A stretch of DNA of 64,000 nt from an uncultured delta proteobacterium (GTDB lineage: Bacteria > Desulfobacterota > Desulfobacteria > Desulfobacterales > Desulfatirhabdiaceae): contig CAWBKP010000010.1 in the NCBI GenBank assembly GCA_963789395.1, positions 7,351-71,350 of the forward strand, in the 5' to 3' direction. The notes under the pieces are model-generated. The model was not told the DNA's origin. It saw only the letters and a list, made by a program, of their open reading frames with translations, and did not search any database. The position numbers were made by a program, and so were the translations under genes. Below, piece by piece: positions 5,154 through 41,281 of this stretch. How positions within the stretch are numbered: position 1 is the first letter of the stretch; the number at the start of each line of letters is the position of its first letter.

Positions 5154-5333
5154 CTACTTACCGATCACTTTCTTGACCTGTCCGACTTTTTCCTGAATTT
5201 TTCCGTCCAGATTTTCGATTTTGCCTTCGGCTTCCAATTCGCGATTCCCGACAACTTTCCCAACGGTCTCCTTGATCTTGCCTTCAGCCTGGTGCATTTT
5301 GCCTTCTACATTGTCTTTTGTGCTTGGTTTCAT
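5154..5333 (-). CDS. CsbD family stress-response protein
   Basis: Below the ORF-track size cutoff. Hand translation gives MKPSTKDNVEGKMHQAEGKIKETVGKVVGNRELEAEGKIENLDGKIQEKVGQVKKVIGK* (59 aa), with the typical CsbD G-K-x-K-E / EGK repeats. Confidence 0.75.
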   Translation of the reverse strand: MKPSTKDNVEGKMHQAEGKIKETVGKVVGNRELEAEGKIENLDGKIQEKVGQVKKVIGK

Positions 5334-5366
5334 GGCCTTCCTCCAGTTTTTTGAGTTAAACGTTGG

Positions 5367-5516
5367 TTAGATTCTGCCCAATAAGAGCAGGATCAAAAGA
5401 ATAACCACAATCAGCCCGACCACGCCTCCGGGTGCATACCCCCAGGATCGGCTATGCGGCCAGACAGGGATTACCCCCACAAGTACCAGTATCAGAATTA
5501 TAAGTAAGATTGACAT
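5367..5516 (-). CDS. DUF3309 family small membrane protein
   Basis: Hand translation gives MSILLIILILVLVGVIPVWPHSRSWGYAPGGVVGLIVVILLILLLLGRI* (49 aa). It has two TM segments and the conserved PxWPxSRxWGY core of DUF3309. Confidence 0.65.
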   Translation of the reverse strand: MSILLIILILVLVGVIPVWPHSRSWGYAPGGVVGLIVVILLILLLLGRI

Positions 5517-5618
5517 GATTTGTTCTCCTTTTTAAAATAATGTGCACTCCAAATTGACTGACTCCAGCAAGTTCTTTACCGAAACGAGCCGGCTGCCTCG
5601 GTCGGTCCAGGACACGGT

Positions 5619-5846
5619 TCACGGTACGGTCATGTTGTTAACCACCTTCTTTACGCCGTGAACGTCACTCACGAATTTGGTGGCCAAGTCCTTTTCAGCC
5701 GCGTTTTTGGCTTTGCCTGCCAACGTTACCACGCCTTCTTTCGTCTCGACTGTGGAAGAATCAAACAAGGCGCTGACAAACGATCTAAAATTGAAAAGGG
5801 GGTATCCATTTCGCTGGCCTATCCGTACCCGAACATCAGTTAACAA
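5619..5846 (-). CDS. BON domain protein; 5' region interrupted by a MITE
   Basis: The C-terminal part FRSFVSALFDSSTVETKEGVVTLAGKAKNAAEKDLATKFVSDVHGVKKVVNNMTVP is a BON domain. The first roughly 19 codons of the listed ORF (TTG start) are encoded by the inserted element 5797-5955. Removing the element plus one target duplication restores an open frame ...NGIASNFNFRSFVSALFDSS... that runs back to sigma-54 promoter A. Confidence 0.55.
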   Translation of the reverse strand: MLTDVRVRIGQRNGYPLFNFRSFVSALFDSSTVETKEGVVTLAGKAKNAAEKDLATKFVSDVHGVKKVVNNMTVP

Positions 5847-6025: not shown

Positions 6026-6041
6026 TGCACTCTTTGTGCCA
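6026..6041 (-). promoter_or_regulatory. sigma-54 (-24/-12) promoter, cassette A
   Basis: The minus strand reads TGGCACAAAGAGTGCA (GG-N10-GC spacing; consensus TGGCAC-N5-TTGCA), preceded by TTGGAAACT as in the other cassettes. It lies upstream of the BON / DUF3309 / CsbD genes. Confidence 0.7.
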
Positions 6042-6141
6042 AGTTTCCAATACGCGTCATCACATCACCCATCATTCTGATATTTATTAATAATTAGTTA
6101 ACAATGCATTTGCAGGGTTGTCATTAACAACCATAATAAAA

Positions 6142-6171
6142 GGTCATATTTAACCTGTGGTCATATATGAC
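6142..6171 (-). promoter_or_regulatory. enhancer-like tandem palindrome (UAS) of cassette A
   Basis: The plus strand reads GGTCATATTTAACC-TGT-GGTCATATATGAC. GTCATATATGAC is a perfect 12-bp palindrome. The site lies 100 nt upstream of the -24 box, and the same element occurs at three other loci. Confidence 0.6.
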
Positions 6172-6324
6172 TTATTTGCGGTTAGAATTCCTATTCTTGA
6201 TTCAACCCCGCTTCGGGCTATGACGGTTTCAAGAAGCAAAGCTATCCTCTCTCAGCGGCCGAAACGAAAAAGGTGGGCGTCGTCTTCGCCTTTCTTGGTT
6301 TCCGGTGGTTCCGGTTTCATGCTA

Positions 6325-14376: not shown

Positions 14377-15551
14377 TCATGACTTCACAAAAAGATCCCG
14401 GCTTTTTTCTATTCCATCCAGAAGGGCGGAAATCGCATACTGCAGTGCCAGCCTGGCGCCGTTTTCCGGCGTCGTTTGCGCGTAATTTCCAATCATAGAC
14501 GTTCCATGCCCTTTGAAAATGATGTTTGAGCCATTATTCGCGTCAAACTCCAGCTGAAGATCGATTTCAAATTCATACTTCTCGTTGTGTTCCAGGGAAT
14601 CGGCTCGCAGGAATTTAGGAATCACCACATAATCATAACTCCGCACCCGGGCATGATCCGGATCATTTGACAAAAGCATCTCCCTGGCTCTGGCTTCGCT
14701 TCGCACCTGCCATACATCAACCTTGGCAAATTCGATCCCTAAAGCTTTTCTCATTTCCAGCTCCGCTTCCCGGCCAAGTTGGTAACGGATGCTGCCTCTC
14801 TTATAGTTGCCGACATGATCGAAGGTCTCAAACTCGGCTGGAATCAGCAGCAGAATTTTCACAGGAATCGGCGGTCTTCCGTACTGAGAATAATCCACGG
14901 GGGTCAGGGCGTATTCGTGAGCGTAAGAACTTCCGCGAGAAATTGTTCTGTCCGCGTTTCTTGGTTCTTCAATGCTTCCGGTTCGATTTAGATCCGATTC
15001 CAGTGTATCGAGCCTGCGGGATATGTCTGCTTCTTCCTCGTATGTCGCGTATCTGCCGCCTTCCGTCATCCGCATATAGTCACGCCGAATGGTGTCCAAT
15101 CTGAATTGAAAATCCCGCTCCGCTGCAAGAGACAAACGCTTGCTGGTGCTTCCATCATCAATTCTCCTTTGAAGTGCGGCAATCCTGTTCCCAATGCCGG
15201 GTTCAACAATTCTTGTCGTCCGGCCATCGCCCTGTCGATCTCTTCACCGAGCCCATCAATTCTGGTAATAAGGTTGTCCCACTCTTCCCGGTAGACACTT
15301 TTGTCTTTCAGCGCCGCATATTCTGATCGAATCGCTTTCAGTTTCATCAGAAAACTCTGAGACTGATCGAGGCTAAGTGCGCCGGTTTTCAGCCCCTCTC
15401 CAATCTTCTCCTGAATGACAAACATCTTGTTCTCTGCAGTTCTTTGATCATCCTGCCATACTTGAATTGAGGCGCAGCCGCTAATCAGAATCAATCCAAA
15501 AATCATTGCTGCCGTCACATAGCCAACGCTTCTTATTTCTTGTTTATTCAT
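14377..15551 (-). CDS. lipoprotein with a coiled-coil N-domain and a conserved C-domain (paralog of 17334-17960); probably one gene split by a frameshift
   Basis: ORF 15066-15551 has a lipobox (LILISGCAS) and coiled-coil sequence. Its last roughly 50 aa look non-protein-like. The frame of ORF 14377-15135 is open from about 15245 and reads ...RIAALQRRIDDGSTSKRLSLAAERDFQFRLDTIRRDY. The C-domain YSQYGRPPIPVKILLLIPAEFETFDH... matches 17334-17960. Confidence 0.5.
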
Positions 15552-15741: not shown

Positions 15742-15757
15742 TGCATTCTTTATGCCA
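15742..15757 (-). promoter_or_regulatory. sigma-54 (-24/-12) promoter, cassette B
   Basis: The minus strand reads TGGCATAAAGAATGCA, preceded by AATGAAACC. It lies about 190 nt upstream of the lipoprotein gene start at 15551. Confidence 0.65.
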
Positions 15758-15859
15758 GGTTTCATTCACGCCGCTTTACATCATACATCATGTTGATTTT
15801 TATGAACAATTAATCCAAAAAGCATTGACAAAGCTGCCACTTGCTGTCTTATATAATAT

Positions 15860-15890
15860 GGTCATATTTAACCAGATGGTCACATATGAC
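15860..15890 (-). promoter_or_regulatory. enhancer-like tandem palindrome (UAS) of cassette B
   Basis: The plus strand reads GGTCATATTTAACC-AGAT-GGTCACATATGAC, 102 nt upstream of the -24 box. Confidence 0.6.
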
Positions 15891-16072
15891 TTTTTTCCGT
15901 CTCTTGCGTGTAGCGTGCTTTTTTACAAAAAAAATCTTTTCAATTGGCTGCCCGATAGAGGGGACAGTTTGAATTTTGCTGTAATATTCTGATTAAATGG
16001 TGTGACAATAAATCTATCAAGGACTATCCTATCGTATTACAGATTGACGAGAAGTACTTTAAAGGGGCTACC

Positions 16073-16686: not shown

Positions 16687-16690
16687 AATG

Positions 16691-19321: not shown

Positions 19322-19337
19322 AGGGAAATTCGCCTCC

Positions 19338-19688
19338 TTACCTGCGTCGCAAAATCGCTCCGATAATCAGGCCGGCGCCTCCTGCTATCAAGAGACAGCG
19401 CCCCGGATTCTGCCCGATATATTTCCGGACACCGGCGTTTGCCCGTTCATAATCGAATTGCCGAACATACTCGGCGGATTGGTCCAGCCACGCCGATGCC
19501 GGGTTTTCCGAACCCATGCCGGATTGCACGTCCGAATCTCCCGCTTTTTCGCTTAGCGCATCGGCAATATGATGCAATTTATCAGCGATAATATTTTTGA
19601 CGTTCTCGAAGCCGGTTGACTGCCCCGAACCCTGGAACGCTTCGGCGGCTTCTTCGGTTTCATCAACTGTGCTATTGTTTTCTCCCAT
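19338..19688 (-). CDS. DUF883 (ElaB/YqjD/YgaM) family protein
   Basis: C-terminal NPGRCLLIAGGAGLIIGAILRRR tail anchor and a helical N-part. It is the first gene of a four-gene yqj-like set. Confidence 0.55.
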   Translation of the reverse strand: MGENNSTVDETEEAAEAFQGSGQSTGFENVKNIIADKLHHIADALSEKAGDSDVQSGMGSENPASAWLDQSAEYVRQFDYERANAGVRKYIGQNPGRCLLIAGGAGLIIGAILRRR

Positions 19689-21904: not shown

Positions 21905-22396
21905 TTAATTACTCTCGGTCGTTGTTGTAGTGCTGGTTTGCTTCTTTCCGATCGCTGGATTTTCGATCGTCGTGGTAGTGCTGGTTTGTTTTTTCCCGAT
22001 AGAGGGCTTATCGATTGTCGTCGTGGTGCTGGTCCGTTTCTCTTCGATCCCGGGCTTTTCGGTCGTCATCGTGGTTTTCTGAACCATCACTTTGTTAGCG
22101 ACCATGCGATCGCCTTCGCGGGTATAGTAAACCGTTACCGGCAGACCGGATTTGACAGTCTCGATGGAGACAGGCGCACCCGTTTCGTCAACATAGGTTG
22201 TACTCTTCGAGTAGCTATAGCTCATCGGAGATGAACTGGTTTCGGACCGGACCACGATGTTGTTGGGGCTGACTTCGCTGATCGTCCCGGCGGTTTCCGT
22301 TGTCGTGACCGTGCTTACAATCCCCTGTTGGGCAAATAACCCGCATGGTATAATCAAAACTGCCAATACAAATACGAACGACATTGCTGTTTTCAT
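21905..22396 (-). CDS. secreted protein with C-terminal Thr-rich tandem repeats
   Basis: The likely start is MKTAMSFVFVLAVLIIPCGLFAQQ (signal peptide). The C-terminus is KPGIEEKRTSTTTTIDKPSIGKKQTSTTTTIENPAIGKKQTSTTTTTESN, i.e. three repeats of about 15 aa (about 45 bp each). Confidence 0.6.
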   Translation of the reverse strand: MKTAMSFVFVLAVLIIPCGLFAQQGIVSTVTTTETAGTISEVSPNNIVVRSETSSSPMSYSYSKSTTYVDETGAPVSIETVKSGLPVTVYYTREGDRMVANKVMVQKTTMTTEKPGIEEKRTSTTTTIDKPSIGKKQTSTTTTIENPAIGKKQTSTTTTTESN

Positions 22397-22514
22397 AACT
22401 TTTCCTTTTTTTGTGAAATTTTTAAGCATTCGATGTAAATCTTCTTTCATGCTTTAAAATCCCGCAGAGCCTTTCCCTGCAGGCTGTTGAACTTTGAACC
22501 GGTTCTCGAGCACC

Positions 22515-22706
22515 TTAATCATTACTTTCGGTTGTTGTGGTGGTGGTCCGCCTCTCTTGGAGTATGGGTTTTTCGGTCGTCGTGGTCGTGGTTTTCCGGA
22601 TCACTTCTCCTGTGCTTTCGTGTTTGGGTGCCGATGAACAGGCCATCATTGTGGCGATCATCATCAGAAGAACTAAATAAGGGATAATAATTTTTCTCTT
22701 TTTCAT
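22515..22706 (-). CDS. small lipoprotein with the same Thr-rich repeat
   Basis: MKKRKIIIPYLVLLMMIATMMAC lipobox, then RKTTTTTTEKPILQERRTTTTTTESND. The ending TTTTTESN(D) is shared with 21905-22396. Confidence 0.6.
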   Translation of the reverse strand: MKKRKIIIPYLVLLMMIATMMACSSAPKHESTGEVIRKTTTTTTEKPILQERRTTTTTTESND

Positions 22707-22820: not shown

Positions 22821-22836
22821 TTCAATTATTGTGCCA
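22821..22836 (-). promoter_or_regulatory. sigma-54-like (-24/-12) promoter, cassette C (weaker -12)
   Basis: The minus strand reads TGGCACAATAATTGAA (GA instead of GC at -12), preceded by GTTGAAAACC as in the other cassettes. It lies 115 nt upstream of 22706. Confidence 0.5.
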
Positions 22837-22936
22837 GGTTTTCAACACACAGCATCATTTCACCCATATTCCGATATTTAAGTATAATTTGTGAACAAAG
22901 CAGTTACAGACCTGCCATTTGCTGCCCTGTAACAAG

Positions 22937-22967
22937 GGTCATATTTAACCATGCGGTCATATATGCC
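22937..22967 (-). promoter_or_regulatory. enhancer-like tandem palindrome (UAS) of cassette C
   Basis: The plus strand reads GGTCATATTTAACC-ATGC-GGTCATATATGCC, 100 nt upstream of the -24 box. Confidence 0.55.
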
Positions 22968-23146
22968 CATTTTTCTGTCTTTCGGTGTGATGAGCGGCAA
23001 AAAATAAGGGCGGATTAAAATGATAATGGATTTTTTCCTGGCGCCTGCATCGGAATTGCTTTCAGGAAAATCATCTGATTACGATTCAGTGCTGCGCCAA
23101 CGGGGAAAAACTCGGAACATTCGGAGATGTTAGACGGGTGGAGAAT

Positions 23147-24668
23147 TTATGGTTTTTGGATGCCAAGTTTACGCATGCGCGCGCGCAGGGTGCTGCGGTC
23201 GAGCCCAAGGATTTCAGCCGCGCTGTTTTTTCCGCCGATTTTCCAGTGGGTCTGTTCCAGTGTCTGGACAATATAGTCGCGCTCAACCGCATCCAGGGTT
23301 TTTTTGTTTGTGCTTAAACCCTTGAACGGCTTCTTGAGTTCATCAACCAGGCGCAGCTTGGGACCCGACGAGTTGATGACCGCACGTTCAATGACGTTTT
23401 CCAGCTCCCGGACATTTCCGGGCCAGTGATAGTTTTGCAAGGAACTCATGACACCCGCCGAAATGAGTTCAATGGACTTGCCCATCCGTTTGGAAATTTT
23501 TTTGACGTAAAAATCCACAAGAAGCGGGATGTCTTCCATGCGGTCCCGGAGCGGCGGCATGGTTATCGGAAAAATATTCAACCGGTACAAAAGATCTTCA
23601 CGGAAACGGCCCTTGCGGACTTCCTCTTCCAGATTGCGATTTGTGGCGGCGACAATCCGCACATCGACCTTGACGGTGTGGGAGCTGCCCAGCCGTTCAA
23701 ACTCGCCGTCCTGGAGCACTCTGAGCAGCTTTGACTGCAGTTCCAGCGGCAATTCGCCGATTTCATCCAGAAAAAGGGTGGCGCCGTTTGCGACCTCAAA
23801 TCGCCCCAGACGTCTGGCAATGGGAACCGGTGAACGCGCCTTTCTCATGACCGAACAATTCGCTTTCGATCAGGTTTGCGGGCAGTGCGGCGCAATTTAC
23901 TTTCACCAGAGACCGGTTTTTGCGCAAGCTCAAGCCGTGAATGGCCCGGGCGACCAATTCCTTGCCGGTTCCCGTCTCGCCCAGAACCAGCACGGTGGTA
24001 TCGCTGCCGGCAATTTGCTCCACTTTATAGAGCACGTATTTGAGCCCGTCACTTTGACCGATAATTTTGTCATGGTTGTATTCCAGTTTGATTTCTTCCT
24101 GCAGATAGGCTCTTTCCGCTTCCAGTTGATCTTTTAACATTTTTATTTCGGAAAGGGCGGTTTCAGCTTTTTGTTTTCCTTTTTCCGCCGCTTCTTTTGC
24201 GATGACAAGCTCGGCCGTTCGATTGGTCACCTCGCGTTCAAGAAAGGCGGTCTGGTCCCGCAGGAAATCGGCCATGGCCTTCAGCGCCAGATGGTTCTTC
24301 ACGCGCGCCATGACGATGGGCGGGCTGATCGGCTTGGTGATGTAGTCGACCGCGCCGAGTTCCAGCCCTTTCTTCTCGTCCTCCATTTCAGACCTGGCGG
24401 TGAGAAAGATCACCGGGATGTTCATCGTCTCGGGATCGCGCTTGAGTCGCCGGCACACCTCGTAACCGTCCATGCCGGGCATCATGATGTCGAGCAGGAT
24501 CAGGTCCGGCGGCGGGTCCGACGCCGCGATCCTCAGCGCCTTCTCGCCACCGTTGGCGATTTTCACCTTGTAGGTATCCTTGAGCAGACTGCTCATCAGC
24601 GCCAGGTTGTCCGGCGTGTCGTCGACCACCAGTATCGTGGTCCTTTCGGTGAAATCGAGTTCGTCCAT
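23147..24668 (-). CDS. sigma-54-dependent response regulator (REC - coiled-coil - AAA+ - Fis-type HTH), one frameshift
   Basis: REC ([11 protein letters not shown] ... DIMMPGMDG), AAA+ sigma-54 interaction domain ([42 protein letters not shown]) and HTH ([22 protein letters not shown]). It is split into ORFs 23796-24668 and 23147-23848 by a frameshift near 23825. Confidence 0.85.
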
Positions 24669-24680: not shown

Positions 24681-27600
24681 TCAGACCGATGGTCCGGCGG
24701 CGGCCCTCAGCGCTGCGAGCGCCGCCTCGAAGTCGAATGACCGGATGCCTTCGTCGATCTTGCGGTAGTGGTTGGGGAAAGCGGCGTTAAGCAGGTCCGC
24801 ATTCGCATCCAGCACATCACCCGCCTCCGCGTCGTCGTCGGCCAGCATTGCCTCCAGCTTGTCACAGACAGCCTTGAGTTGTTCCGGGTCTACAGCGGCG
24901 GCCATCCTTGGCCCGTTCCTCCGGAAGCTTGTGTTCCAGTTGGGTGATGAGATATTCAAGCGGCATTTTCAACGCGTCGAGCCGGGCATCGATCTCCTCG
25001 CGCGGATGGCGCTCCCTGATCGCGGTTTCGAGCTTTTCCGCCAGCTGCTGCAGGCCGGTGGCGCCGATGGTGCCGGAAACACCCTTCAGCGTGTGGGCAA
25101 GCCGCTCCGCGGTGTCCAGGCAGTTGCTCTCCAGCGCTTTGCGGATTTCCGCCAGTACGGATTTCTGCCCGGCGACGAACTTGCGCAGCATCGAAAGGTA
25201 GAGCGGTTTTTTGCCGAGCACACGGCGCAGGCCGTTGGCCATATCCAGCCCCTCGATGCCGGACGGCAGGTCGACATCTTCGCGACCGCCTGCGGCTTGC
25301 CATCAGGACTGCTGCTGTCGCGTGCCGCGGCTTGATCCATTTCAGCAGCGCCTTCCACAGGTTTTCGGGTTCGATCGGCTTGGCCACATGATCGTTCATG
25401 CCCGCCGCCATGCAGCGGTCGCGATCGCCCTGCATGGCGTTGGCGGTCATCGCCACCACCGGAAGATCCTTGAAGCGCGCATCCTTGCGGATCTCCCGGG
25501 TCGCCGTCACGCCGTCCATCACCGGCATCTGCATGTCCATCAGCACGATGTCGTAATCGGCGGCCCTGACCTTGTCCAGCGCGATCTGGCCGTTCTCGGC
25601 CAGATCGACGATGAAGCCGGCATCGCGCAGCAGTTCGGTTGCCACTTCCTGGTTGAGATCGTTGTCCTCCACCAGCAGGATGCGGGCGCCCTTGATGGTG
25701 GCGAGTTGCTCGAAGGTGTCGGTCGGCGCATCCCCGGCGATGCGCGCGCCATCGACAACGCCTCCCAGAATGCGCATCACGCTGTCGAAGAGCACCGAGG
25801 CGCTGACCGGCTTGATCAGCACATCCTCGATGCCCGCTTCCTCCGCGCCTTTTATAACTTCCTCGCGGCCGAAAGCGGTCACCATGATCATGTGCGGCAT
25901 GCGGCTGAGCGGAAGCTCCCTCAGCTGCCTGGCCGTTTCGTTGCCATCCATGCCCGGCATCTGCCAGTCGAGGAACACGATCTCGTAGGGCATGCCCTGG
26001 GCCTCGGCGCGTTCCACGGCGCCGATGGCCGCCTGGCCCGACTCGGCCTGGTCGACCTTGAAGCTCATGCTGCCAAGCAGGTCGCCCAGCACCTGGCGGG
26101 CGTTCTCGTTGTCGTCCACCACCAGCACGCGTTTGCCCTGCAGGTCGGCCGACAGCACCAGCTTGCGCTGCTGGCCGACGCCCTTGCCGAGGCGCGCCGT
26201 GAACCAGAAGGTGCTTCCCTTGCCGGGTTCGCTGTCCACGCCCACCTCTCCGCCCATCAGTTCGGCCAGCTTCTTGGAAATGGCCAGCCCGAGGCCGGTG
26301 CCGCCGAATTCGCGGGTGGTCGAGGTGTCGGCCTGCGAAAATCTCTGGAACAACCGCCCCATCTGCTCCTCCGTCAGGCCGATGCCGGTATCGCGCACGG
26401 CGCAGTAGATCAGCACGTCGTCGTCGGTCTGCTCCTTGAGGCGGATGATGATGTCGATCTCGCCATGCTCGGTGAACTTGACGGCATTGTTGCCGTAGTT
26501 GATAAGAATCTGCCCCAGCCGCAGCGGATCGCCGATCAGGTTGGGCGGCACGTTCCTGTCCACGTCAAAGACCAGTTCCAGCCCCTTGGCGGCGGCCTTC
26601 TCGGCGATCAGGTTGGCCACATTGTCAAGCACCTTCTCCAGTTCGAACTCGGTGTGCTCGATCGTCAGCTTGCCCTCCTCGATCTTCGAGAAATCGAGAA
26701 TATCGTTGATGATGTTGAGCAGATGCCGGCTGGAAAGCTTGATCTTCTTGATGTAGTCGCGCTGGCGGGGCGTCAGTTCGGTCTTCAGCGCCAGATGGGA
26801 CATGCCGATGATGGCGTTCATCGGCGTGCGGATCTCGTGGCTCATGTTGGAGAGAAAATCCGATTTGGCGAGGTTGGCTTTTTCCGCCACGGCCTTGGCT
26901 TTCTCCAGCTCGGCGGTCTTTTCCTGCAGCACCTGATCCAGGAGTTTGCGCTCCGTGATGTCGCGCGCAGCGGCGAACACGCCCTGCAGCCTCCTGTCCC
27001 GATCGTAGAAGGTGGTGGCATTCAAGGACACCACCGTTTCCTGCCCGTCCCTGGTGCGCGCGGTGAGCTCGTAGTTGGTGACCTTTTTTTCGCTCAGCAC
27101 GCGTTTGATGCTTGCCTCGGCCCGCTCCGGATCCGTAAAGTAATTCTTGAACGGCGCGCCGATCAATTCGTCGCGCGTGCAATCGGTGAGCGCCTCCATC
27201 TGCTTGTTGACATCGGTGATGATGCCGGACGGATCGGTGGTCATCAGCGCGTCGATATTGGATTCAAAGAGGGAGCGCGTGTAGAACTGATAGTCGCGCA
27301 GGCGCTGATCGAGCTGATTTCGCACGGTGATATCACGCAAAATGCCGGTGAAGTATCGCTGGCCACCCAGCCACATTTCGCTTACCGCAATCTCCAACGG
27401 AAAAGTGCTGCCATCCTTGCGCCTGCCGGTGACTTCGCGTCCGAGGCCGATAGCGCGCGCCTCTTCGCTCGCACTGTAATACTCGAGCGAACCATTGCGC
27501 TGGTCCTGATCCAGTTCGGGGATCAGCAGGCTGAATTTCTGTCCGATGAATTCTTCGGCGGCATAGCCAAACATTCGCTCGGCGGCCGGATTCACCGTCT

Positions 27601-29173
27601 GGACGATGCCGCCGTTGGCGTGGAGGGTGACGATGCCATCCTCCACGGTATTGAGAATGGTCTGGATCAGCGCAGCACTGTCGCGCAAGGCCTGCTGCGC
27701 CGCATATTCCCCGGTGACATCGCGGAACACCAGCACGGCGCCGATCACCTGACCGTCCCGGTCGCGAATCGGCGCGCAACTGTCGGCAATATCGCACTCG
27801 CCGCCATCGCGTGCAATCAGCACGGTGTGGTTGGCCAGGCCCTGTATCATGCCCTGCGCCAGGGTTTCAACAACCGGAATCGTGGCCGGGTGGCGGGTTT
27901 CTTTGTTGATGATGTGAAAAATATCGCTCACCGGGCGTCCGCCGGCCTGCGCCATCGTCCAACCGGTGAGCTTTTCGGCAAGGGGATTCAGGAGTGTCAC
28001 ACGTGCTTCGGTATCGGTGGTTATTACGGCATCGCCAATGGAGTTGAGCGTCACCGCGAGTTTTTCCTCGCTGTCCCGCAAGGTGACGTTGGCCTGCTGC
28101 AGTTGTTTGTTTGTCTCCTGCTGAATCTCGATCAAATGCTGCCGCTCTGCTTCGACCTGCTTGCGCGCGGTGTTGTCCGTGCCAATCAGCAGGTAACCGA
28201 TGATGGCGTTTTTTTCGTCGCGCAGGGCCGTGACCGAAACGATTGCCGGGAACCGACTGCCGTCCTTGCGGATGTAGGTCAGCTCGTAGATGTCCTCGAT
28301 GCCGCGTGACGCCTTGAAAACCAGCGCCTCGAAGCCCGGTGTAATCGGGGTTCCGAGTTCGACGCTGAGCGCTTCGGCGCGCGCGATCACTTCCCGCGGA
28401 TCGGAAATTTCGGCCGGCGTGATTTTGTTCATCACTTCGGCGGCCGTATAGCCCAGCATGCGCTCGGCACCGACATTGAAGATCTGGATGACGCCCTTTG
28501 CGTCGGTTGCGATACTCGAGAAATTGGCGCTGTTGAAAATCGCGTTTTGAAGCGCACCCGTCTTGAGCAGCTCTTTTTCAGCCCGCTTTCGCTCAGTGAT
28601 GTCACTCATCACGATGCGGCATACGGGAGCGCCGTCCGTATCCTGCGAGGTGGCCAATTCCAGATGCGCCCAGAATTGCGTGCCGTTCTTTTTCACCATC
28701 CTCAGATCGCATGCCAGCGGTTCACCGGCCTGCCTTGTGCCTGCCGAAAGGGTTTCCGAGAGTTGTTTGCGGTACAGGTAGTAGATGTCCTGGTCTTCTT
28801 TGCGGATAAACCGGGTGATCGGCTGCTTGACCAGTGCGCCCCGGGCCATGCCCAGCAGCGTCGCAGCGGTCAGGTTGGTCTCCAGAATCAATCCATTTTC
28901 GGAGACGGTGCAATATCCCACCGGCGCCAGATCATAGAGGTCGAAATAGCGCCCCCGTTCGGCGTCCAGTTCCTGCTGCGCCGCGCGCAACTCTTCGTTC
29001 TGGATCTCAAGTTCAATCTGGTGCACGCGCAACTCGTGGAGCATCCGCCGGGTTTCTTCAGGAGACAGGGATTGGATGTTTTCCGTCGACTGCGCCACTT
29101 TTTCCCGGGCGATCTCTTCGGCCCGACGTCTCAGTTCGGTGTCTTTTTCGGGTTGGATATCCTTGTTTTTCAT
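24681..29173 (-). CDS. multi-PAS hybrid sensor histidine kinase (PAS x about 5 - HisKA - HATPase - REC - REC - Hpt), two frameshifts near the 3' end
   Basis: ORF 24956-29173 contains:
- A coiled coil and PAS/PAC repeats.
- HisKA ([17 protein letters not shown]).
- HATPase ([23 protein letters not shown]).
- Two REC domains ([12 protein letters not shown] ... DWQMPGMDG; [13 protein letters not shown] ... DMQMPVMDG).
The Hpt domain ([13 protein letters not shown]) lies in ORF 24862-25242 and the tail in 24681-24959. The frameshifts are near 25295 and 24905. The gene ends 12 nt before the EBP gene. Confidence 0.85.
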
Positions 29174-29322: not shown

Positions 29323-30498
29323 TCAATGCTTTGCTCCTTCGCATTCACAAAAGGGCTCAGTATTAAAAATTTCCTGAAAAATGGTTTTAAATTCGAGCAA
29401 CCGTTTTTTTGCAAATAACTGATGAAGCGTTTTGGCCTGTGTTTCCTCAAAATTCAATTCTCCGAGACGTTTTTCAATATAAATCTGTGTCCTCAGTGTA
29501 ACCTTAACCCCCAATATCGCTTCAATATTCGTTTCAATCTCAGACGCCGATAATTTCCGGCAAATCTTATTCTTTCCCATGGCAGTTGCATCAGTCCCAT
29601 TACTGCAAGGCGTTGCCGCATTTCCTTTAACTGCCGAAATATTTGTTAGACTGTGCGCCTCCGATAGGCGACACAAATATTCAGCCTGATGCGCAGCCAC
29701 TTGGAGATAGGCGCTCAAATTGTAAAAGCCTGCATGGATATGCTCTGGAAATTTTATGCCGCTTCGACTGCTCATATATCGATATTTGTGATCAATCTCG
29801 CTCCACGCCTCTTCGAGAATGGTCCGCAATTGTAACTCGAAGCAAAGGTCCTTCAACACCGGCGGAGCATCCGAATTTTCGCCCAGTTTTATCTTGTAAT
29901 GGATGGAAGAGTATCCGGTGTATCTTGGATCTACGCTATCCGGGATCGATTCGCCGGGATCAACCGGCAGCAGGAAAGACTTCTTTGGATCAGGACCTTC
30001 TACAAAATTCAAAATATTTTCTTCGGACAACAATTTGAGATAGGTCTCAATTTTTTCAATATCCGAAAGACGCAGGCAGATGATCCGGACACCCAATAGA
30101 TCACCGACATTTTCCTGATAATTTTTTTCCGTAATTATCCGTGCACCGGTAGCCATCCCTTCATCCAACATATTGATTTTCTCAATCAGCCTCTGTTCGT
30201 CCTTGATGCGGTATATAACGGTGTGCAGACTTTCTTTTGGCGACGATGGATCGTCCTGGATCAGACGAACGATATATTCAGCAAGTTTTTTATATCTTTC
30301 TTTTTCCTTCAAAAACGAGATGAGGATCGCCTCTTTCTGGTGTTTCTTCAAATACCGATTCTCCTCGATAAATTTGTGTACCGACAGACCGTCACCGCCG
30401 TAATACCGAACAACATGCTTAATGATATGCGCATTTTCTTTTGTTTTTTTGCCTTCACGACAAATACCGTTAGAATCCCAGCGACACTTCCATGCCAT
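29323..30498 (-). CDS. RelA/SpoT-domain protein (small alarmone synthetase / toxSAS-like nucleotidyltransferase) with a C-terminal extension of about 140 aa
   Basis: Synthetase-fold motifs: SLHTVIYRIKDEQRLIEKI, DLLGVRIICLRLSDIEKI, YTGYSSIHYKIKL, CFELQLRTILEEAWSEIDHKYRY. The start is taken at ATG 30496-30498 (MAWKCRW...), because the listed start at 30642 overlaps the upstream gene by 170 nt. The gene is markedly AT-rich compared with its flanks. Confidence 0.7.
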   Translation of the reverse strand: MAWKCRWDSNGICREGKKTKENAHIIKHVVRYYGGDGLSVHKFIEENRYLKKHQKEAILISFLKEKERYKKLAEYIVRLIQDDPSSPKESLHTVIYRIKDEQRLIEKINMLDEGMATGARIITEKNYQENVGDLLGVRIICLRLSDIEKIETYLKLLSEENILNFVEGPDPKKSFLLPVDPGESIPDSVDPRYTGYSSIHYKIKLGENSDAPPVLKDLCFELQLRTILEEAWSEIDHKYRYMSSRSGIKFPEHIHAGFYNLSAYLQVAAHQAEYLCRLSEAHSLTNISAVKGNAATPCSNGTDATAMGKNKICRKLSASEIETNIEAILGVKVTLRTQIYIEKRLGELNFEETQAKTLHQLFAKKRLLEFKTIFQEIFNTEPFCECEGAKH

Positions 30499-31675
30499 AG
30501 TAATCAACCTTATTGTTATAAAACTGGCCATACGGATCATACCCACTGTACCACACTGCCATGAGGCGCAGGCGGCGCTGGCCCGGGTAGGGATGACCAA
30601 ACTCGAGGCCTGCCTTGATGCTGGTATCGACGGACCAGTCATTCTCCTCCGTGCTCTTCATATCCACCCCGGCGATTGGTCTGCCGCTCCAAACAAGCGG
30701 CTTGATACCGCGATACTCGAGCCCCCAGTGGGCGATTGCCGGCTTGAGATCACTCGGTTCCTTGTGGACCAGGTACTCCCCGCCACCGTAAACTCGCCAC
30801 TCTCGCCAATCGCGGGAATAGATGAGCTCAGTGGATTCGTAGCTGAGGTTAACCCGTTCCGGATGATTGGCGCTCAGGAGCAGTTCATCCCCCAGATGCG
30901 AGCTCTGATGATAAAGGCGGACACGGAGCGAATTGTCGCCATACCGGTAGGTAACCGGAATGCCGATGGTGTAGTCCGCATTGATAAGGTCGGAGGAAGC
31001 GGAATCCAGGTTGAATTGGGCGAACAGAGCGCCTTCCAGGCTCAATTGAAGCCCGTCCCCCTCGCGGCTGCCGAAAAACCTGTATATGCCGAATGTCTCC
31101 CCGAAGCCGACGGACGCCATGGTGTATCGGACATCCAGTGAGCTGAAACTAAGGAGGCTGACAAAGAACCGCGGCTGCTTCGGGTCGGCAATGAGCGGCC
31201 AGAACAGATCGCCAACTGGAAAGGTTTCTCCCTGGGCGGTAACCCCCATAAAACTGCCTTCCGCTTCCGGCTTGACGGCGTCTGCAGGCTTTACCACGAT
31301 CGTTACCCCCTTGAGTCCATCGATAGCACGCAACTGCTTGTCGGCCGCCTCCTGCCGAATCGGGTCCTCTTTATACAAGGTAATTGTGGCAACTCCGTTG
31401 ACAATCTTCAACATATAGCTGTCTCTTTCCCAGTTCAGGTCCCGCTCAAGGATGGAGGCAACATAACCGGTCAGAAATTCATCGCCGGACCTGTTTGCGG
31501 CCACTGCGGGGAGAGAGGTGAAAAGGAGCATGAGACAGAGGAAGGCGGCGAAGAGGCGTCCGGTAACATTCACACAGGTGGTGATACGCAGCAGCATGGT
31601 CACGTCATTTTCCTTTTTATTGGCAGAACAGGGGGCGTCAAACGCCAGACCGATGGGTCCGGCATCCTGGCTCAT
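30470..31675 (-). CDS. DUF1207 domain outer-membrane-type protein with an N-terminal BON-like domain
   Basis: Signal-like segment RLFAAFLCLMLLFTSLPAVAA, then a BON-like part (GYVASILERDLNWERDSYMLKIVNGVATITLY ... IDGLKGVTIVVKP), then the DUF1207 core (FPVGDLFWPLIADPKQPRFFVS ... RVRLYHQSSHLGDE). ATG 31675 overlaps the upstream stop (ATGA). An alternative start is at 31597. Confidence 0.65.
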   Translation of the reverse strand: MSQDAGPIGLAFDAPCSANKKENDVTMLLRITTCVNVTGRLFAAFLCLMLLFTSLPAVAANRSGDEFLTGYVASILERDLNWERDSYMLKIVNGVATITLYKEDPIRQEAADKQLRAIDGLKGVTIVVKPADAVKPEAEGSFMGVTAQGETFPVGDLFWPLIADPKQPRFFVSLLSFSSLDVRYTMASVGFGETFGIYRFFGSREGDGLQLSLEGALFAQFNLDSASSDLINADYTIGIPVTYRYGDNSLRVRLYHQSSHLGDELLLSANHPERVNLSYESTELIYSRDWREWRVYGGGEYLVHKEPSDLKPAIAHWGLEYRGIKPLVWSGRPIAGVDMKSTEENDWSVDTSIKAGLEFGHPYPGQRRLRLMAVWYSGYDPYGQFYNNKVDYYGMEVSLGF

Positions 31676-31962
31676 TTGAACTTTGAGGCCGCATTGTGGT
31701 AGGCTGTCTTGACTTCATCCCAGGCTTTTTCCGCGCCTGTTTTGACGTCTTCCCATGCCTCGTCTCCGGCGGTCTTCAGCTCGCGCAATCTTGTTCCGGC
31801 AACTTCTTGTTTGTGCTCCAACGCTTCGATGTTTTTGTAGTATTCGATCTTCGCATCGGCCTTGGCCTTGTCCGCCTTGGCCTTAAGCAGCGCTATCTGC
31901 GCGTTCCATTCTTGGAACTGCGCCTCGAGCTTTTCTTCATATGCTTTTCGTTTGTCCTTCAT
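31672..31962 (-). CDS. coiled-coil protein of unknown function
   Basis: 96 aa, Lys/Glu/Ala-rich heptad-like sequence (EEKLEAQFQEWNAQIALLKAKADKAKADAKIEYYKN...). Confidence 0.5.
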   Translation of the reverse strand: MKDKRKAYEEKLEAQFQEWNAQIALLKAKADKAKADAKIEYYKNIEALEHKQEVAGTRLRELKTAGDEAWEDVKTGAEKAWDEVKTAYHNAASKFK

Positions 31963-32004
31963 TTAAAATTCCTTTTCAGTTTATTGAGTGTATCTTCAGA
32001 AGAT

Positions 32005-32196
32005 TCACTTCCCGATACGAATCCTTGAGATGTCACCAATGAGTCCGAAAACACTCAAAAGCCAGAGAATAACCCCAATAACCACGACGGCATTGAGGAT
32101 TTTCTTAATACTGCTCTGCATCGGTATGTAATTGTTAATCACCCACAGGATCACCCCGACGACAACCAAAACAATGACCAATTGTATCAACGGCAT
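32005..32196 (-). CDS. Thivi_2564-type small two-TM membrane protein
   Basis: MPLIQLVIVLVVVGVILWVINNYIPMQSSIKKILNAVVVIGVILWLLSVFGLIGD. The layout and motif match that small-protein family, recalled from memory. Confidence 0.5.
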   Translation of the reverse strand: MPLIQLVIVLVVVGVILWVINNYIPMQSSIKKILNAVVVIGVILWLLSVFGLIGDISRIRIGK

Positions 32197-32347
32197 GGTA
32201 TTTCTCCTTTCATCTTGCGCATTGACGGAGAAGAGACCGGTTCTCTCGCCATGGAGCAGTGAGACGTCATAAACCTCGCATTTGAAGGGGCACCCCGAAA
32301 TTCTGGCGAAATGGGAAGTACTTTGATGGAATGCCCCTTATCCATTC

Positions 32348-32659
32348 TTATTTCTTTTCGACCTTCAAAAGGTTCTTAACGGATTTCACGCCCTTGATTT
32401 TCCTGATGTTTGATACAAGCCGGTTCTCGGTCGTTGTGCTGTTCACAAAACCGGTAAGCACAACCTCTCCTTTTGTGACCGTCACTTCGATCTTTAAATA
32501 ATGGGCATCCGGATCTTGAACTACGATCGCTGTTGCTTGTGTATAAATCGATGAATCGTCGACATGCTCACCTGCTGTCTCGCCCGTCATCATCGCGCAG
32601 CCCGAAAACATGGCCAACCCAAACACCATTAACACTGTCATAAGAATCGCTTTTTTCAT
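32348..32659 (-). CDS. BON domain lipoprotein
   Basis: The start is chosen at the second ATG after GGAG (MKKAILMTVLMVFGLAMFSGC lipobox). The BON domain is DDSSIYTQATAIVVQDPDAHYLKIEVTVTKGEVVLTGFVNSTTTENRLVSNIRKIKGVKSVKNLLKV. Confidence 0.75.
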   Translation of the reverse strand: MKKAILMTVLMVFGLAMFSGCAMMTGETAGEHVDDSSIYTQATAIVVQDPDAHYLKIEVTVTKGEVVLTGFVNSTTTENRLVSNIRKIKGVKSVKNLLKVEKK

Positions 32660-32745
32660 TTTCATTTCTCCTTTTCTTAGATGCGCAATCATACGATTGC
32701 ACGATTAATAAATAACGATGGCAAATTCGTTCCTGATTATACAGT

Positions 32746-32761
32746 TGCACGCATTGTGCCA
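32746..32761 (-). promoter_or_regulatory. sigma-54 (-24/-12) promoter, cassette D
   Basis: The minus strand reads TGGCACAATGCGTGCA, preceded by TTGGAAAAC. It lies about 87 nt upstream of the BON lipoprotein start. Confidence 0.75.
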
Positions 32762-32862
32762 GTTTTCCAACACGCAGCGTCAAGCCACTCATCTATTTGA
32801 TTTTAAATAATAATTTGTTAACAATGCACTTATACGACTGGCATTGGCGGATAGAAATAAAG

Positions 32863-32893
32863 GGTCATATTTAACCGATGGTTATATATGACC
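32863..32893 (-). promoter_or_regulatory. enhancer-like tandem palindrome (UAS) of cassette D
   Basis: The plus strand reads GGTCATATTTAACC-GAT-GGTTATATATGACC, 101 nt upstream of the -24 box. Confidence 0.6.
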
Positions 32894-38644: not shown

Positions 38645-41281
38645 ATGTCGGCTGAACATCGCGCTCCAATCATCGCTTTCGTTTGGCGGCCCGAGGAGAT
38701 GACCCCGCCTGTAATCCAAATGGCGCATCAAACAGGGAGCAGGGCCATCTTCGATTTTTCCATGATGGGGGTGGATGCGCTGCGATCTTCCCTGCAAAAA
38801 GCCGGCCCCGACGGCCAGATCAGGGATATCAAGATTTCAGCTGCTGCATTTATGGAACCGTCTTTGGGACAGATATTACCCAATACAGGCGTCCAAAACC
38901 TTTGGATCGAATGTCACCCGCAGTTTTTCCAGGGAGATCCTTCCACGTTTCTACAGAGATTGAGGGAATTGCCGCAAAATTACCGCCTCTTCCCGATTTT
39001 CGGGGACCTGAATCTCCTGACGACTATTTTGACAGATGGCCCGGAAATCGGGCGCATCGTCCTGAAAGGAAGCGAGGCATCCGGATTCGTAAGCAGTGAG
39101 ACGACCCTGACGCTTTATTCAGCGGTCAAGGAAATGCTGCGACGCCGATCGAAGTTTTTGGACATCCTCATCTGGGGAAGTGTTTTCACTCCTGAGGCGG
39201 CTGCGGCATTTTTGTCCACCGGAGCCACGGGGATCGTCTTCGAGAGCCTCCATTGGCTGACAGACCTGGTTGCTGTTGATGATCTCCAACGCCGGCGGCT
39301 CTCCAACCTCCGCCTGGATTCAACCGATCTGGTCGGACTGGACCTGCAGGTTCCCTGTCGCATTTTCAACAAGGGAAACTCGATCGCGTTCAAGGAGATC
39401 AAAAGTTTCGAAAACGCGCTGTGCGGAGCAAGGATCACGGAGGAAAGCCGCCGATCCTTCGAGAACCGAGTGAGTATTGGGACCCGCCACCCTCTGGAGA
39501 GTGCTTTCACCCCGGGCGAGACCATCCCTCTGGGTGTGGAGGCAGCCTTTGCCGCATCCTTTGCCGAGCGTTTTGGAACGGAAACCGAGGAAGCCGTGAA
39601 GTCCTTCATGAACGAGATTCACAGCTCATGCCGCCAGGCTGTTATAAAAAATGACTGCTTTTTGAACAGCCCCGTCGCCGCAGAGATGGGATCCAAATAC
39701 CCTTTTATCCAGGGAGCCATGACCTGGATCACCGATGTCCCTGAGTTTGCCTCACGGGTTGCCGAGGCCGGCGGGTTGCCCACAATCGCCCTGGGCATGA
39801 TGGACGCCGAAACCCTTGATCGGAAGCTGGGACACCTGCCGGAGATCATGGGCGGGCGCTCTTATGCCGTGAATATCGTCTCTCTGGCGGAGAACCCTTT
39901 CAGGGAGACCCAACTGGCATGGATAAAGAAACACCGGCCCCGTTTTGTGGTGATCGCGGGAGGGGATCTCTCCTTTTTAAGGGATTTGTTGGCATGCGGA
40001 CTGGAGATCATGTATATCGCCCCGAACGAGGCATTGTTGCGACTCGCTCTTGAAGCCGGCGCCCGGTATGTGATCTGCGAGGGATATGAGGCCGGCGGGC
40101 ACGTTGGCCGCCATAGCACGCTTACCCTTGCTCAAATGGTACTGGATCTGAAACGAATCAAACCATCCCTGTTCCAGAATTGCCGCATGATTCTTGCCGG
40201 GGGAATTTTCAACCGGGAAACCGCATTCATGGCAGCCATGCTCGGAGCAGATGCCATCCAGATGGGCACCGCATATCTGGCCACCCGTGAAATCATTGAA
40301 ACGGGAGCCCTGACGGCGCTCTATCAGCGGATGGTCCTGGAATCACCTCCTGGCGGAACGGTCGTTTCAGGCAGGGACACCGGACTTCGGGTGCGCTCCT
40401 TGAAGTCCCCGAGAACAGCCGCAGTTTCATCCCTGGAGCGGGAATTTGCAGCGGATCACCCAGACGAGAGTTCCTTCCGCACGAAAATAGAAGAGATGAC
40501 GGCGGGAAGCCTCTTCACCGCGGCCCGCGGCATGGAAAGACCCGGCGGGGCGCCTCTGGATGAGCGGACCTGCCTGGAACGCGGACAATTCATGAGCGGG
40601 GCCAGTGCCGGCCTTATCAGCAATGTCCTGAATCTGCCGTCCTTCCATCGCGAGTTGGCTGAAGGCCATCTTTTGCTGCATCAGCCCGGGGGTTCCACCG
40701 AGAGAATGCCGGAACCTTCACCCGGCGCTTCGCGCCCCATGAAACCCCCATCCAGCGGGATTGTCCAGGGACTGATGAAACCGGCGCTGCATAAAGACGC
40801 CCATGAAAGGGTTGCCATCACCGGGATGAGTATTCTCAATACCCTGGGGGATAGTCCGGAAGGGGTCTGGGCGGCAAGCCTGGCCTTGAAGAGCGGGATT
40901 ACCCTGGTTCCGTCTTCCCGGTGGGATCACACTCTTTTTTATGATCCCCGCCCGTTTGCTCCGGACAAGACTTACTGCAGGGTGGGCGCCTTCCTGGACG
41001 TTCATATCTCCCGAGGCGAACTCGGAATTTCCCCGCATGATTTCCGAACCATGACCGATGCCACAAAGCTCACCCTGTGGCTGGCGGACAAGGCCATCCG
41101 GGAGTCCGGCATCCTGGAGTCGAACATCCCACGGGAGCGAATCGCAGTCCTTGTCTCCCAGAACTCCGGAGAAGCGGCGGCAACCTTCACCGATCTTAAT
41201 CATAAGGGCGCATGTTCACGACATCCTGGCCGATATCAATCGGGTGCTTCACCTCAGTCCGGATCAGATGCGCGCCGCTGA
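38645..41281 (+). CDS. megasynthase part 1: two PfaD/nitronate-monooxygenase-like enoyl reductase domains plus the start of the KS
   Basis: The second ER domain is clear (YPFIQGAMTWITDVPEFASRVAEAGGLPTIALGMM ... CEGYEAGGHVG ... MGTAYLATRE). The first roughly 330 aa form a degenerate copy of the same fold. The KS begins at RVAITGMSILNTLGDSPEGVW. The true reading passes into ORF 41058-45983 at about 41197. Confidence 0.8.
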   Translation: MSAEHRAPIIAFVWRPEEMTPPVIQMAHQTGSRAIFDFSMMGVDALRSSLQKAGPDGQIRDIKISAAAFMEPSLGQILPNTGVQNLWIECHPQFFQGDPSTFLQRLRELPQNYRLFPIFGDLNLLTTILTDGPEIGRIVLKGSEASGFVSSETTLTLYSAVKEMLRRRSKFLDILIWGSVFTPEAAAAFLSTGATGIVFESLHWLTDLVAVDDLQRRRLSNLRLDSTDLVGLDLQVPCRIFNKGNSIAFKEIKSFENALCGARITEESRRSFENRVSIGTRHPLESAFTPGETIPLGVEAAFAASFAERFGTETEEAVKSFMNEIHSSCRQAVIKNDCFLNSPVAAEMGSKYPFIQGAMTWITDVPEFASRVAEAGGLPTIALGMMDAETLDRKLGHLPEIMGGRSYAVNIVSLAENPFRETQLAWIKKHRPRFVVIAGGDLSFLRDLLACGLEIMYIAPNEALLRLALEAGARYVICEGYEAGGHVGRHSTLTLAQMVLDLKRIKPSLFQNCRMILAGGIFNRETAFMAAMLGADAIQMGTAYLATREIIETGALTALYQRMVLESPPGGTVVSGRDTGLRVRSLKSPRTAAVSSLEREFAADHPDESSFRTKIEEMTAGSLFTAARGMERPGGAPLDERTCLERGQFMSGASAGLISNVLNLPSFHRELAEGHLLLHQPGGSTERMPEPSPGASRPMKPPSSGIVQGLMKPALHKDAHERVAITGMSILNTLGDSPEGVWAASLALKSGITLVPSSRWDHTLFYDPRPFAPDKTYCRVGAFLDVHISRGELGISPHDFRTMTDATKLTLWLADKAIRESGILESNIPRERIAVLVSQNSGEAAATFTDLNHKGACSRHPGRYQSGASPQSGSDARR

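Follow-up and report, generated by a model that had tools for sequence, protein, structure and literature searches.

The 64,000-nt window analysed here (contig CAWBKP010000010.1 of an uncultured member of the Desulfatirhabdiaceae) harbours on its minus strand four copies of one colinear promoter module of ~185 nt (cassettes A–D), each followed by co-directional genes, as well as an adjacent gene pair encoding a candidate sigma-54 activator, i.e., an enhancer-binding protein (EBP; 23147..24668), and a hybrid histidine kinase (24681..29173). The order of elements is the same in all four copies: two abutting 14-bp palindromes, an IHF-like element (WATCAR-N4-ATG) and a box of the type TGGCAY-N6-TGMA resembling the -24/-12 region of sigma-54 promoters. 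Four such cassettes had been proposed in an initial annotation made from the sequence alone, and direct reading of the sequence located each of them at the positions assigned there.

Putative promoter cassettes and their genes

Cassette D comprises an enhancer of the structure GGTCATATATAACC-ATC-GGTTAAATATGACC (32863..32893; presumed EBP dimer sites, 31-nt weight-matrix score of 52.2), an IHF-like element (AATCAAATAGATG, 32790..32802) preceded by an A/T tract, and the sigma-54 -24/-12 box TGGCACAATGCGTGCA (32746..32761). The enhancer of cassette C (GGGCATATATGACC-GCAT-GGTTAAATATGACC, 22937..22968) begins 179 nt past the stop codon of the EBP gene and is followed by the weakest of the four IHF-like matches (TATCGGAATATGG, 22864..22877) and by a box (TGGCACAATAATTGAA, 22821..22836) whose -12 element reads TTGA instead of TTGC. 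Cassette B is composed of the enhancer AGTCATATGTGACC-ATCT-GGTTAAATATGACC (15860..15891), the IHF-like element AATCAACATGATG (15786..15798) and the box TGGCATAAAGAATGCA (15742..15757), and cassette A of AGTCATATATGACC-ACA-GGTTAAATATGACC (6142..6172), TATCAGAATGATG (6070..6082) and TGGCACAAAGAGTGCA (6026..6041).

The proximal palindrome GGTTAAATATGACC is invariant among the four cassettes, and the distal one is GGTCATATATGACC-like throughout (AGTCATATATGACC, AGTCATATGTGACC, GGGCATATATGACC and GGTCATATATAACC in A to D). A spacer of 3 nt (A and D) or 4 nt (B and C) separates the two 14-mers, resulting in a centre-to-centre distance of 17–18 bp. The perfect palindrome noted initially (GTCATATATGAC) is present in the distal site of cassette A only. 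Exact matches to GGTTAAATATGACC occur four times in the window (6142, 15860, 22937 and 32863); if up to 3 mismatches are allowed, 11 matches are found vs 3.6 expected, a number reached by none of 100 shuffled sequences. Likewise, TGGCAY-N6-TGMA matches five times (0.57 expected), four matches representing the cassettes and the fifth (56373, plus strand) residing within the PGI gene. The distance between palindromes and box, previously given as 100–102 nt, was measured as 100, 102, 100 and 101 nt. Judged against the sigma-54 consensus (GG and GC 10 nt apart, TGGCAC-N5-TTGCW), the boxes of A, B and D match in full, whereas that of C carries TTGAA with GA at -12. No further cassette was detected in the window with a weight matrix derived from other genomes, and the gene for sigma-54 itself (rpoN) is not among the genes of the window.

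The mean column identity of the aligned cassettes is 76 % (MAFFT, ~213 nt per cassette). Identity drops to 34 % in the 40 nt upstream and to 32 % in the 5' untranslated region, but amounts to 67 % in the stretch from the IHF-like site to the -24 box, which shares only 32 % (sd 14) between genomes. The four copies thus share ancestry beyond their functional elements, in line with the common origin assumed at the outset. A further block postulated as part of the module (TGGCAG-N9-TGCWTTGTT) is only approximate, with TGACAA in A and TGCCAG in D; as it is not conserved in the profile of 107 cassettes from other genomes, it was dismissed as a general element and looks like another trace of the common ancestry of the window's copies. 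Since a scan of the whole window against Rfam yielded no match, no known RNA element resides in the long 5' leaders.

The gene row behind cassette D (29323..32692, minus strand) encodes a BON lipoprotein (32348-32665), a Thivi_2564-family membrane protein (32005-32196), an sll1863-family 'stress response protein' (31672-31962), a DUF1207 protein (30470-31675) and a RelA_SpoT-like protein (29323-30642), and is followed co-directionally by the genes for the kinase and the EBP. A terminator scan of the minus strand from cassette D to the EBP gene revealed one weak hairpin only, located within a gene; therefore, read-through from cassette D to both regulatory genes appears possible. The RelA_SpoT-domain protein may be a small alarmone synthetase; its gene, placed between those for DUF1207 and the kinase, also occurs in a JGI contig of the same gene order and is absent from the locus with the closest orthologous DNA (L002).

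Cassette C precedes genes for two Thr-repeat lipoproteins (row 21905..22706, minus strand; 22515-22706, 63 aa, and 21905-22396/22450). Further downstream, below a broken second kinase gene, small membrane proteins of the DUF883-like (YqjD/ElaB) and holin-X (YqjE) types are encoded at 18048-19688; this stress-type cluster has no cassette of its own and may be read from cassette C. The gene behind cassette B encodes a lipoprotein (14377..15551, minus strand) that is split by a frameshift here (15066-15551 and 14377-15135) and represents a single protein of 390 aa in L002. Downstream of this operon, a B12-binding radical SAM protein with DUF4070 is encoded (12088-13572); the same type is found in eight other genomes within a cassette operon that also contains a KhpA-type KH and an ABM-fold protein. 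A Gly/Arg/Pro-rich secreted protein of 130 aa ending in GISIFFPPIIIYP (16342-16734) has no cassette in the window, and its homologues are located behind cassettes elsewhere (cluster C17, e.g., locus L059).

In case of cassette A (genes at 5154..5846, minus strand), BON, DUF3309 and CsbD proteins had been assigned. DUF3309 (5367-5516) and CsbD (5154-5333) are intact, while only the 3' end of the BON gene is left (5619-5846), with an inverted-repeat element interrupting it. Compared to the operons of loci L111 and L116 (BON protein of ~260 aa), the BON gene has lost ~650 nt at 5755-6016, and what is left encodes its last BON domain only. The element of ~159 bp (5797-5955) is bordered by perfect 26-bp terminal inverted repeats (ATAGGCCAGCGAAATGGATACCCCCT; 5797-5822 and 5930-5955) and a direct duplication of TTTCAATT, and separates the BON remnant from promoter A. 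Its structure resembles that of a miniature inverted-repeat transposable element, and further copies were found neither in the window nor in the 121 loci examined.

Occurrence of the module in other genomes

Occurrence of the double palindrome was searched in 185,579 species (one genome per species) with a pattern covering the palindromes only (ATRTRRCCNNNGGTYAWATRTGRCC, fixed 3-nt spacer). At least 119 loci were retrieved, compared to fewer than ~10 expected by chance according to our own estimate. All cross-genome counts given here refer to the matches listed (119 loci in 8-kb tiles; 107 unique cassettes). They place the module in at least ~90 other Desulfobacterota genomes, nearly all matches carrying labels of this phylum, mainly Desulfobulbales and Desulfobacterales and in some cases Desulfatiglandales and Syntrophales. 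Cultured carriers among them include Desulfosarcina alkanivorans PL12, D. variabilis Montpellier, Desulfamplus magnetovallimortis and Desulfopila sp. IMCC35006. A few matches bear odd bin labels; at least one of them (L090) is probably mis-binned, since it carries homologues of the DUF3309 and CsbD proteins of the window.

The initial annotation had interpreted the cassettes as sigma-54 promoters with an EBP enhancer ~100 nt upstream, and had suggested testing whether the palindromes are linked to boxes at this distance across the genome. Below the palindromes, YGG-N9-TG was matched 103 times at offsets 96–104 and 97 times in the other 311 positions, i.e., at per-position rates of 0.072 vs 0.002, corresponding to a 37-fold enrichment. 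The GG is located 102 nt from the palindromes in 43, 101 nt in 25, 103 nt in 16 and 100 nt in 14 of the 107 unique cassettes (100–103 nt in 98 of them). This positional linkage speaks against a scattered occurrence of the palindromes independent of boxes and supports the proposed geometry, as do the IHF-like element and the neighbourhood of EBP genes described below. Inverted repeats at ~80–150 nt above a core promoter and linked to it in position, as typical of upstream activating sequences, are accordingly found in the window and in the other genomes.

The first six nucleotides of the distal site were left free in the search pattern and are nevertheless conserved as GGTCAT (68–97 % of the 107 cassettes), which confirms that the palindrome of the distal site spans all 14 bp; in the spacer, the first base, likewise free, is A in 84 % of the cassettes. 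Within the box, GG and TTG are invariant across genomes (consensus CTGGCAC-N5-TTG), and the base after TTG is C in 44, A in 52, T in 5 and G in 2 of the cassettes with a box. The -12 GC of sigma-54 promoters helps to keep the closed complex silent, and one may speculate that the TTGA variant alters basal activity.

Alignment of the 107 cassettes at the GG yields the profile aATTttt.ttaaAAATCAA.atgaTgg at -54 to -29. The IHF consensus WATCAANNNNTTR is matched with up to 2 mismatches at -44 to -40 from GG in 90 of the 107 cassettes (84 %), fixed around -42 (no mismatch in ten cassettes, one in 33), compared to 0–3 % at control offsets. In the window, an IHF-type sequence is matched in A (TATCAGAATGATG), B (AATCAACATGATG) and D (AATCAAATAGATG), and weakly in C. 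The IHF-type site suspected between enhancer and box is thereby borne out as a sequence element; from its placement relative to GG, it would be located ~60 nt upstream of the presumed transcription start. In a sulfate reducer, a sigma-54 promoter that depends on IHF is known from the orp operons of D. vulgaris (PMC3897727).

Open reading frames (ORFs) below the 107 cassettes were called heuristically and clustered; their boundaries are rough, with the recurrence of families being independent of them. The most frequent families are BON (26) and ABM-fold (24), followed by DUF3309 and KhpA-type KH (9 each), B12-binding radical SAM with DUF4070 (8), sll1863-type (7), CsbD (5), DUF5670 and Thr-repeat (4 each) as well as desulforedoxin-like and Thivi_2564 proteins (3 each). 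With respect to the stress regulon proposed initially, the recurrence of BON, CsbD, DUF3309, sll1863 and Thivi_2564 is thus established, and a stress role would fit the family names. In L002 (11541-13701) and L106, a cassette is located upstream of a gene for a 648-aa SbmA/BacA-type ABC transporter; since such a large protein is driven by a cassette in the closest relatives, the regulon extends beyond small proteins.

The enhancer-binding protein and its paralogues

The EBP predicted at 23147..24668 displays the domains expected for it (Pfam: Response_reg, Sigma54_activat, AAA_lid_14, HTH_8), i.e., a receiver domain (REC), a coiled-coil linker, a sigma-54 AAA+ domain with lid and a C-terminal Fis-type helix-turn-helix (HTH), as in the NtrC family; the loop motif reads GAFTGS vs GAFTGA in the reference. 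The assumption of a single intact gene does not hold in the assembled sequence, where two overlapping ORFs split the AAA+ domain. Relative to the L002 DNA (93.8 % identical), a single extra base at 23818 interrupts the reading frame. Its removal yields an EBP of 506 aa with GAFTGSHSRRLGRFE, which is 95 % identical to homologue P0001 and reads GSHSRRLGRFE across the repaired junction (alignment to L002). Scores of this protein stay below the cutoff of every NCBIfam equivalog compared (NtrC, NifA, AtoC, ZraR, NorR, FhlA, PspF, PrsR, LuxO, GlrR and others), the best being FhlA (398 vs 830 bits), NifA (388 vs 529), AtoC (384 vs 714) and NtrC (367 vs 559). Together with the absence of a published description in the literature searched on the motif or regulon (sigma-54/RpoN with BON, CsbD, DUF3309 or general stress in Desulfo- genera), this agrees with the early view that the enhancer is not that of a known EBP.

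The kinase gene adjoins the EBP gene upstream and encodes a cytoplasmic multi-PAS hybrid histidine kinase (five PAS stretches by PF13426, HisKA, HATPase and two REC domains), presumed to be the partner sensor of the EBP. Its C-terminal part matches the 1460-aa kinase of locus L001 in three different frames. A 92-aa ORF between the kinase and EBP genes was considered as a separate Hpt protein and rejected for lack of a Pfam match; since the C-terminal end of the L001 kinase is matched by this ORF in another frame, it represents the frameshifted tail of the kinase.

About 100 full-length homologues of the repaired EBP (506–518 aa, 67–95 % identity) were retrieved, the few with a source name originating from Desulfobulbaceae, Desulfocapsaceae, Desulfoprunum and Desulfatirhabdiaceae metagenome-assembled genomes (MAGs). 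A comparison of related Desulfobacterota regions, as suggested initially, revealed that cassette geometry and linkage to the EBP are retained. L002 (EBP 95 % identical) contains four cassettes of the same geometry around the kinase-EBP pair and shares the row BON-Thivi_2564-sll1863-DUF1207-kinase-EBP. L001 (EBP 79 % identical; contig of 3.18 Mb) likewise contains four tandem-palindrome sites around its pair, each 100–102 nt above a GG-N10-GC box (e.g., CTGGCTCAAAGATTGCT) and associated with genes for CsbD with BON, BON, and BON-DUF3309-...-DUF1207. Genes for BON, CsbD, DUF3309 and DUF1207 proteins are thus located behind the cassettes of both loci. No convincing box was found for a second sigma-54 promoter facing the L001 kinase gene.

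An EBP with the C-terminal DNA-binding domain of the window type (last 75 aa 58–92 % identical) is encoded in 35 of the 119 loci, and in 23 of these 35 a co-directional cassette is located 6–241 nt past the EBP stop codon, as is cassette C. Many of these EBPs match that of the window only from residue 107–169 on, and therefore carry other N-terminal domains. Accordingly, paralogues of 523–797 aa possess REC-PAS, REC-PAS-GAF, PAS-PAS or GAF N-termini, while coiled-coil linker and AAA+ core are kept. Across five architectures, 7 of 10 sequences read have an identical recognition helix, and the other three differ by 1–4 residues. Two or more EBPs of the clade are present in at least four assemblies (P0001 and P0113; P0012 and P0117; the tandem pair of L098; L004 and L083 of one MAG). 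In loci with the most divergent clade members (L015, L053, L108, L023 and L079; 58–62 % identity in the DNA-binding domain), the cassette cores tend to the GGTCACATGTGACC type rather than to GGTCATATATGACC, which hints at a co-variation of protein and site.

This linkage bears on the alternative that the cassettes are sigma-54 promoters whose palindromes are bound by another EBP or by a co-regulator that is not an EBP, the adjacency of the genes then reflecting co-regulation and not cognate binding. The choice of activators is large, as Desulfobacteria carry up to 50–69 EBP genes per genome (PMC12316311); moreover, no EBP of the clade is encoded within the 8-kb tile in 84 of the 119 loci, and the window's own copy is frameshifted. 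Nevertheless, this alternative is unlikely: tiles selected by DNA sequence contain the clade EBP far above chance, often directly before a cassette, the recognition helix is identical in paralogues whose sensor domains all differ, and no other regulator gene recurs beside the cassettes of L001, L002 and the clustered loci.

The window contains at least eight frameshift-like breaks within 64 kb (23818; ~25300; ~24908; ~15200-15260; 13924-14021; 41058-41281; 19805-21732), affecting the genes for the EBP, the hybrid kinase (twice), the lipoprotein of cassette B, an RlpA/DPBB protein, a ketosynthase domain of a polyketide synthase (PKS) and a second, fragmented hybrid kinase. Such a pattern suggests a long-read assembly with indel errors, so claims at the level of single bases require caution in this window. 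A regulon decaying in this organism, with the cassettes as relics beside a nonfunctional activator, kinase and first target, could likewise account for the 1-nt insertion in the EBP gene, the three frames of the kinase and the loss of ~650 nt from the BON gene of cassette A with its inverted-repeat insertion. It is, though, quite improbable, since the breaks also extend to PKS and RlpA genes and thus point to assembly errors rather than to selective decay. Furthermore, differences between the EBP genes of the window and L002 are dominated by third codon positions before (13/6/37 for positions 1/2/3) as well as after the break (5/4/28), and all four enhancers have retained the exact proximal site and intact boxes. 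From the number of breaks and the codon-position bias on either side, the EBP frameshift is most probably an assembly indel error.

It is hardly credible that a repressor or activator of ordinary sigma-70 promoters uses the palindromes as operators, with the -24/-12-like boxes arising by coincidence: palindromic 14-mers are indeed typical of many dimeric regulators and half of the boxes lack the canonical -12 GC, but the boxes are enriched 37-fold at one fixed distance with invariant GG and TTG in a full CTGGCAC-N5-TTG consensus, promoter prediction yielded no minus-strand match of the sigma-70 type at C or D (the sole nearby match, 22859-22888, is on the plus strand in the spacer of C), and a site placed 100 nt above the core promoter, from which an IHF-like element separates it, has the geometry of an enhancer rather than of an operator.

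Unrelated to the cassettes, a large polyketide or fatty-acid-type cluster is located at 38645-54582 (KS-AT-ACP-KR, a nitronate-monooxygenase-like enoyl reductase, a 1168-aa AMP-ligase-ACP-aminotransferase and a sulfatase-family protein), and a type III PKS is encoded apart from it, together with a methyltransferase, at 6325-9690.

Proposed control and comparison with known systems

Taken together, the cassettes probably represent activator-dependent sigma-54 promoters with a tandem-palindrome enhancer ~100 nt upstream and an IHF-type site in between. Sigma-54 RNA polymerase is expected to bind as a closed complex to the -24/-12 box (CTGGCAC-N5-TTGC/A), and dimers of one EBP clade would occupy the two palindromes (near -133 and -150) via their C-terminal Fis-type HTH, thereby nucleating an active AAA+ ring at the enhancer. 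An IHF-type protein may bend the A/T-rich DNA at WATCAA-N4-nTR, ~60 nt upstream of the start, and carry the ring to the polymerase, where ATP hydrolysis would open the promoter. In the window, the putative activator is the response-regulator EBP, supposedly phosphorylated by the adjacent cytoplasmic multi-PAS hybrid kinase in a phosphorelay; with cassette D upstream of both genes, self-amplification of the system would be possible. The predicted output consists of small proteins of the periplasm, membrane and cytoplasm, of types commonly found in regulons for general, osmotic or envelope stress, i.e., BON, CsbD, DUF3309, sll1863-family, Thivi_2564, DUF1207 and Thr-repeat lipoproteins in the window, which would suggest a stress signal.

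Several points weigh against this interpretation or narrow it. The bases specified in the search pattern and the 3-nt spacer are conserved by construction; hence, the spacer statistic is circular and was not counted. About one quarter of the palindrome sites show no box by the simple pattern, and the -12 element of cassette C and of about half of all cassettes is TTGA and not the canonical TTGC. The frameshift at 23818, if real, would prevent the window's copy of the EBP from activating. In L001, the kinase-EBP pair is not located behind a co-directional cassette, so that autoregulation would not be general. Finally, the putative stress function is deduced from the names of the target families.

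A broader view, put forward tentatively, is that of a sigma-54-dependent general stress response, widespread among Desulfobulbales and Desulfobacterales and extending to outliers from Desulfatiglandales and Syntrophales, in which EBP paralogues with many sensors act on one enhancer. The paralogues (two kinds of REC, REC-PAS, REC-PAS-GAF, PAS-PAS and GAF modules) would converge on one enhancer sequence, because linker and AAA+ core are kept and the recognition helix is identical. Signals may then be integrated at the enhancer-bound ATPase ring, possibly in the form of mixed rings, and the system would take the role that RpoS, SigB or EcfG have elsewhere; an organism type lacking RpoS had been presumed in the initial annotation.

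Although systems of this kind are familiar, this particular enhancer, its activator clade and the regulon have apparently not been described before; they are widespread. The results define an exact enhancer sequence of 31 bp, a promoter of fixed geometry, a family of candidate activators and a list of recurring targets for an unnamed regulon widespread in sulfate-reducing and related Desulfobacterota, which possess dozens of uncharacterised sigma-54 activators. They also provide a common regulatory context for several families without an assigned function, namely DUF3309, Thivi_2564, DUF1207, DUF5670, the ABM/KH/B12-radical-SAM operon and the Thr-repeat lipoproteins. If correct, the proposal would place general-stress-type genes under enhancer-dependent sigma-54 control, perhaps with several sensor paralogues feeding one enhancer.

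In enteric bacteria, NtrC binds two palindromic dimer sites >100 nt upstream of the TGGCAC-N5-TTGC promoter glnAp2, with phosphorylation-driven oligomerisation at the enhancer, and looping is assisted by IHF at glnHp2. The window's EBP resembles NtrC in its REC, AAA+ and Fis-type HTH domains and in the paired palindromes upstream of a sigma-54 box, but differs in the site sequence (GGTCATATATGACC), in a regulon unrelated to nitrogen and in its score (367 bits, cutoff 559); moreover, the sites abut here (17–18 bp centre to centre), whereas those of NtrC are about three helical turns apart. FhlA is the best-scoring NCBIfam model, its AAA+ and DNA-binding core aligning over residues 151–505; its N-terminus is made up of GAF domains in contrast to the receiver domain of the window's EBP, its targets are unrelated, and the score of 398 bits is far from the cutoff of 830. 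Two paralogous EBPs act on one promoter in case of HrpR/HrpS of Pseudomonas syringae, and more than one paralogue likely acts on the same enhancer here as well; unlike HrpR/HrpS, the present paralogues carry different sensor domains (REC, PAS, GAF) next to an identical recognition helix.

Within the same phylum, the orp operons of D. vulgaris Hildenborough are controlled by OrpR, IHF and sigma-54 (PMC3897727, PMC8359166). They share with the predicted system a sigma-54 promoter, an EBP and an IHF site between enhancer and promoter; by its description, OrpR is set apart as an EBP with an iron-sulfur redox sensor and other targets. The nearest functional analogue in the sigma-54 regulome of D. 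vulgaris is DVU3305, a two-component EBP proposed to control general stress genes, which regulates its own operon (PMC3333781; table in PMC4641369) as well as UspA-type and membrane proteins, a TRAP transporter/pyruvate formate-lyase operon (DVU2822-2825) and kdp (PMC3333781; PMC4641369). It was considered as an orthologue of the window's EBP and, again by description, set apart, since its loop (GAFSGA vs GAFTGS), its Lon-protease response-regulator partner and its targets differ. No BON or CsbD regulon is listed in the papers on the D. vulgaris sigma-54 regulome, and none of the best 120 EBP homologues is a D. vulgaris protein, most of them being uncultured MAG or metagenome sequences.

With respect to their targets, the cassettes can be compared to regulons of stress sigma factors, i.e., RpoS of E. 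coli (osmY, BON; yjbJ, CsbD family; yqjD, DUF883), SigB of Bacillus (csbD) and EcfG of Alphaproteobacteria. BON, CsbD and small membrane proteins are shared with these regulons, and DUF883-like and holin-X genes are located nearby in the window. In contrast to RpoS, SigB and EcfG, control would here proceed via sigma-54 and an enhancer-binding ATPase instead of a dedicated stress sigma factor.

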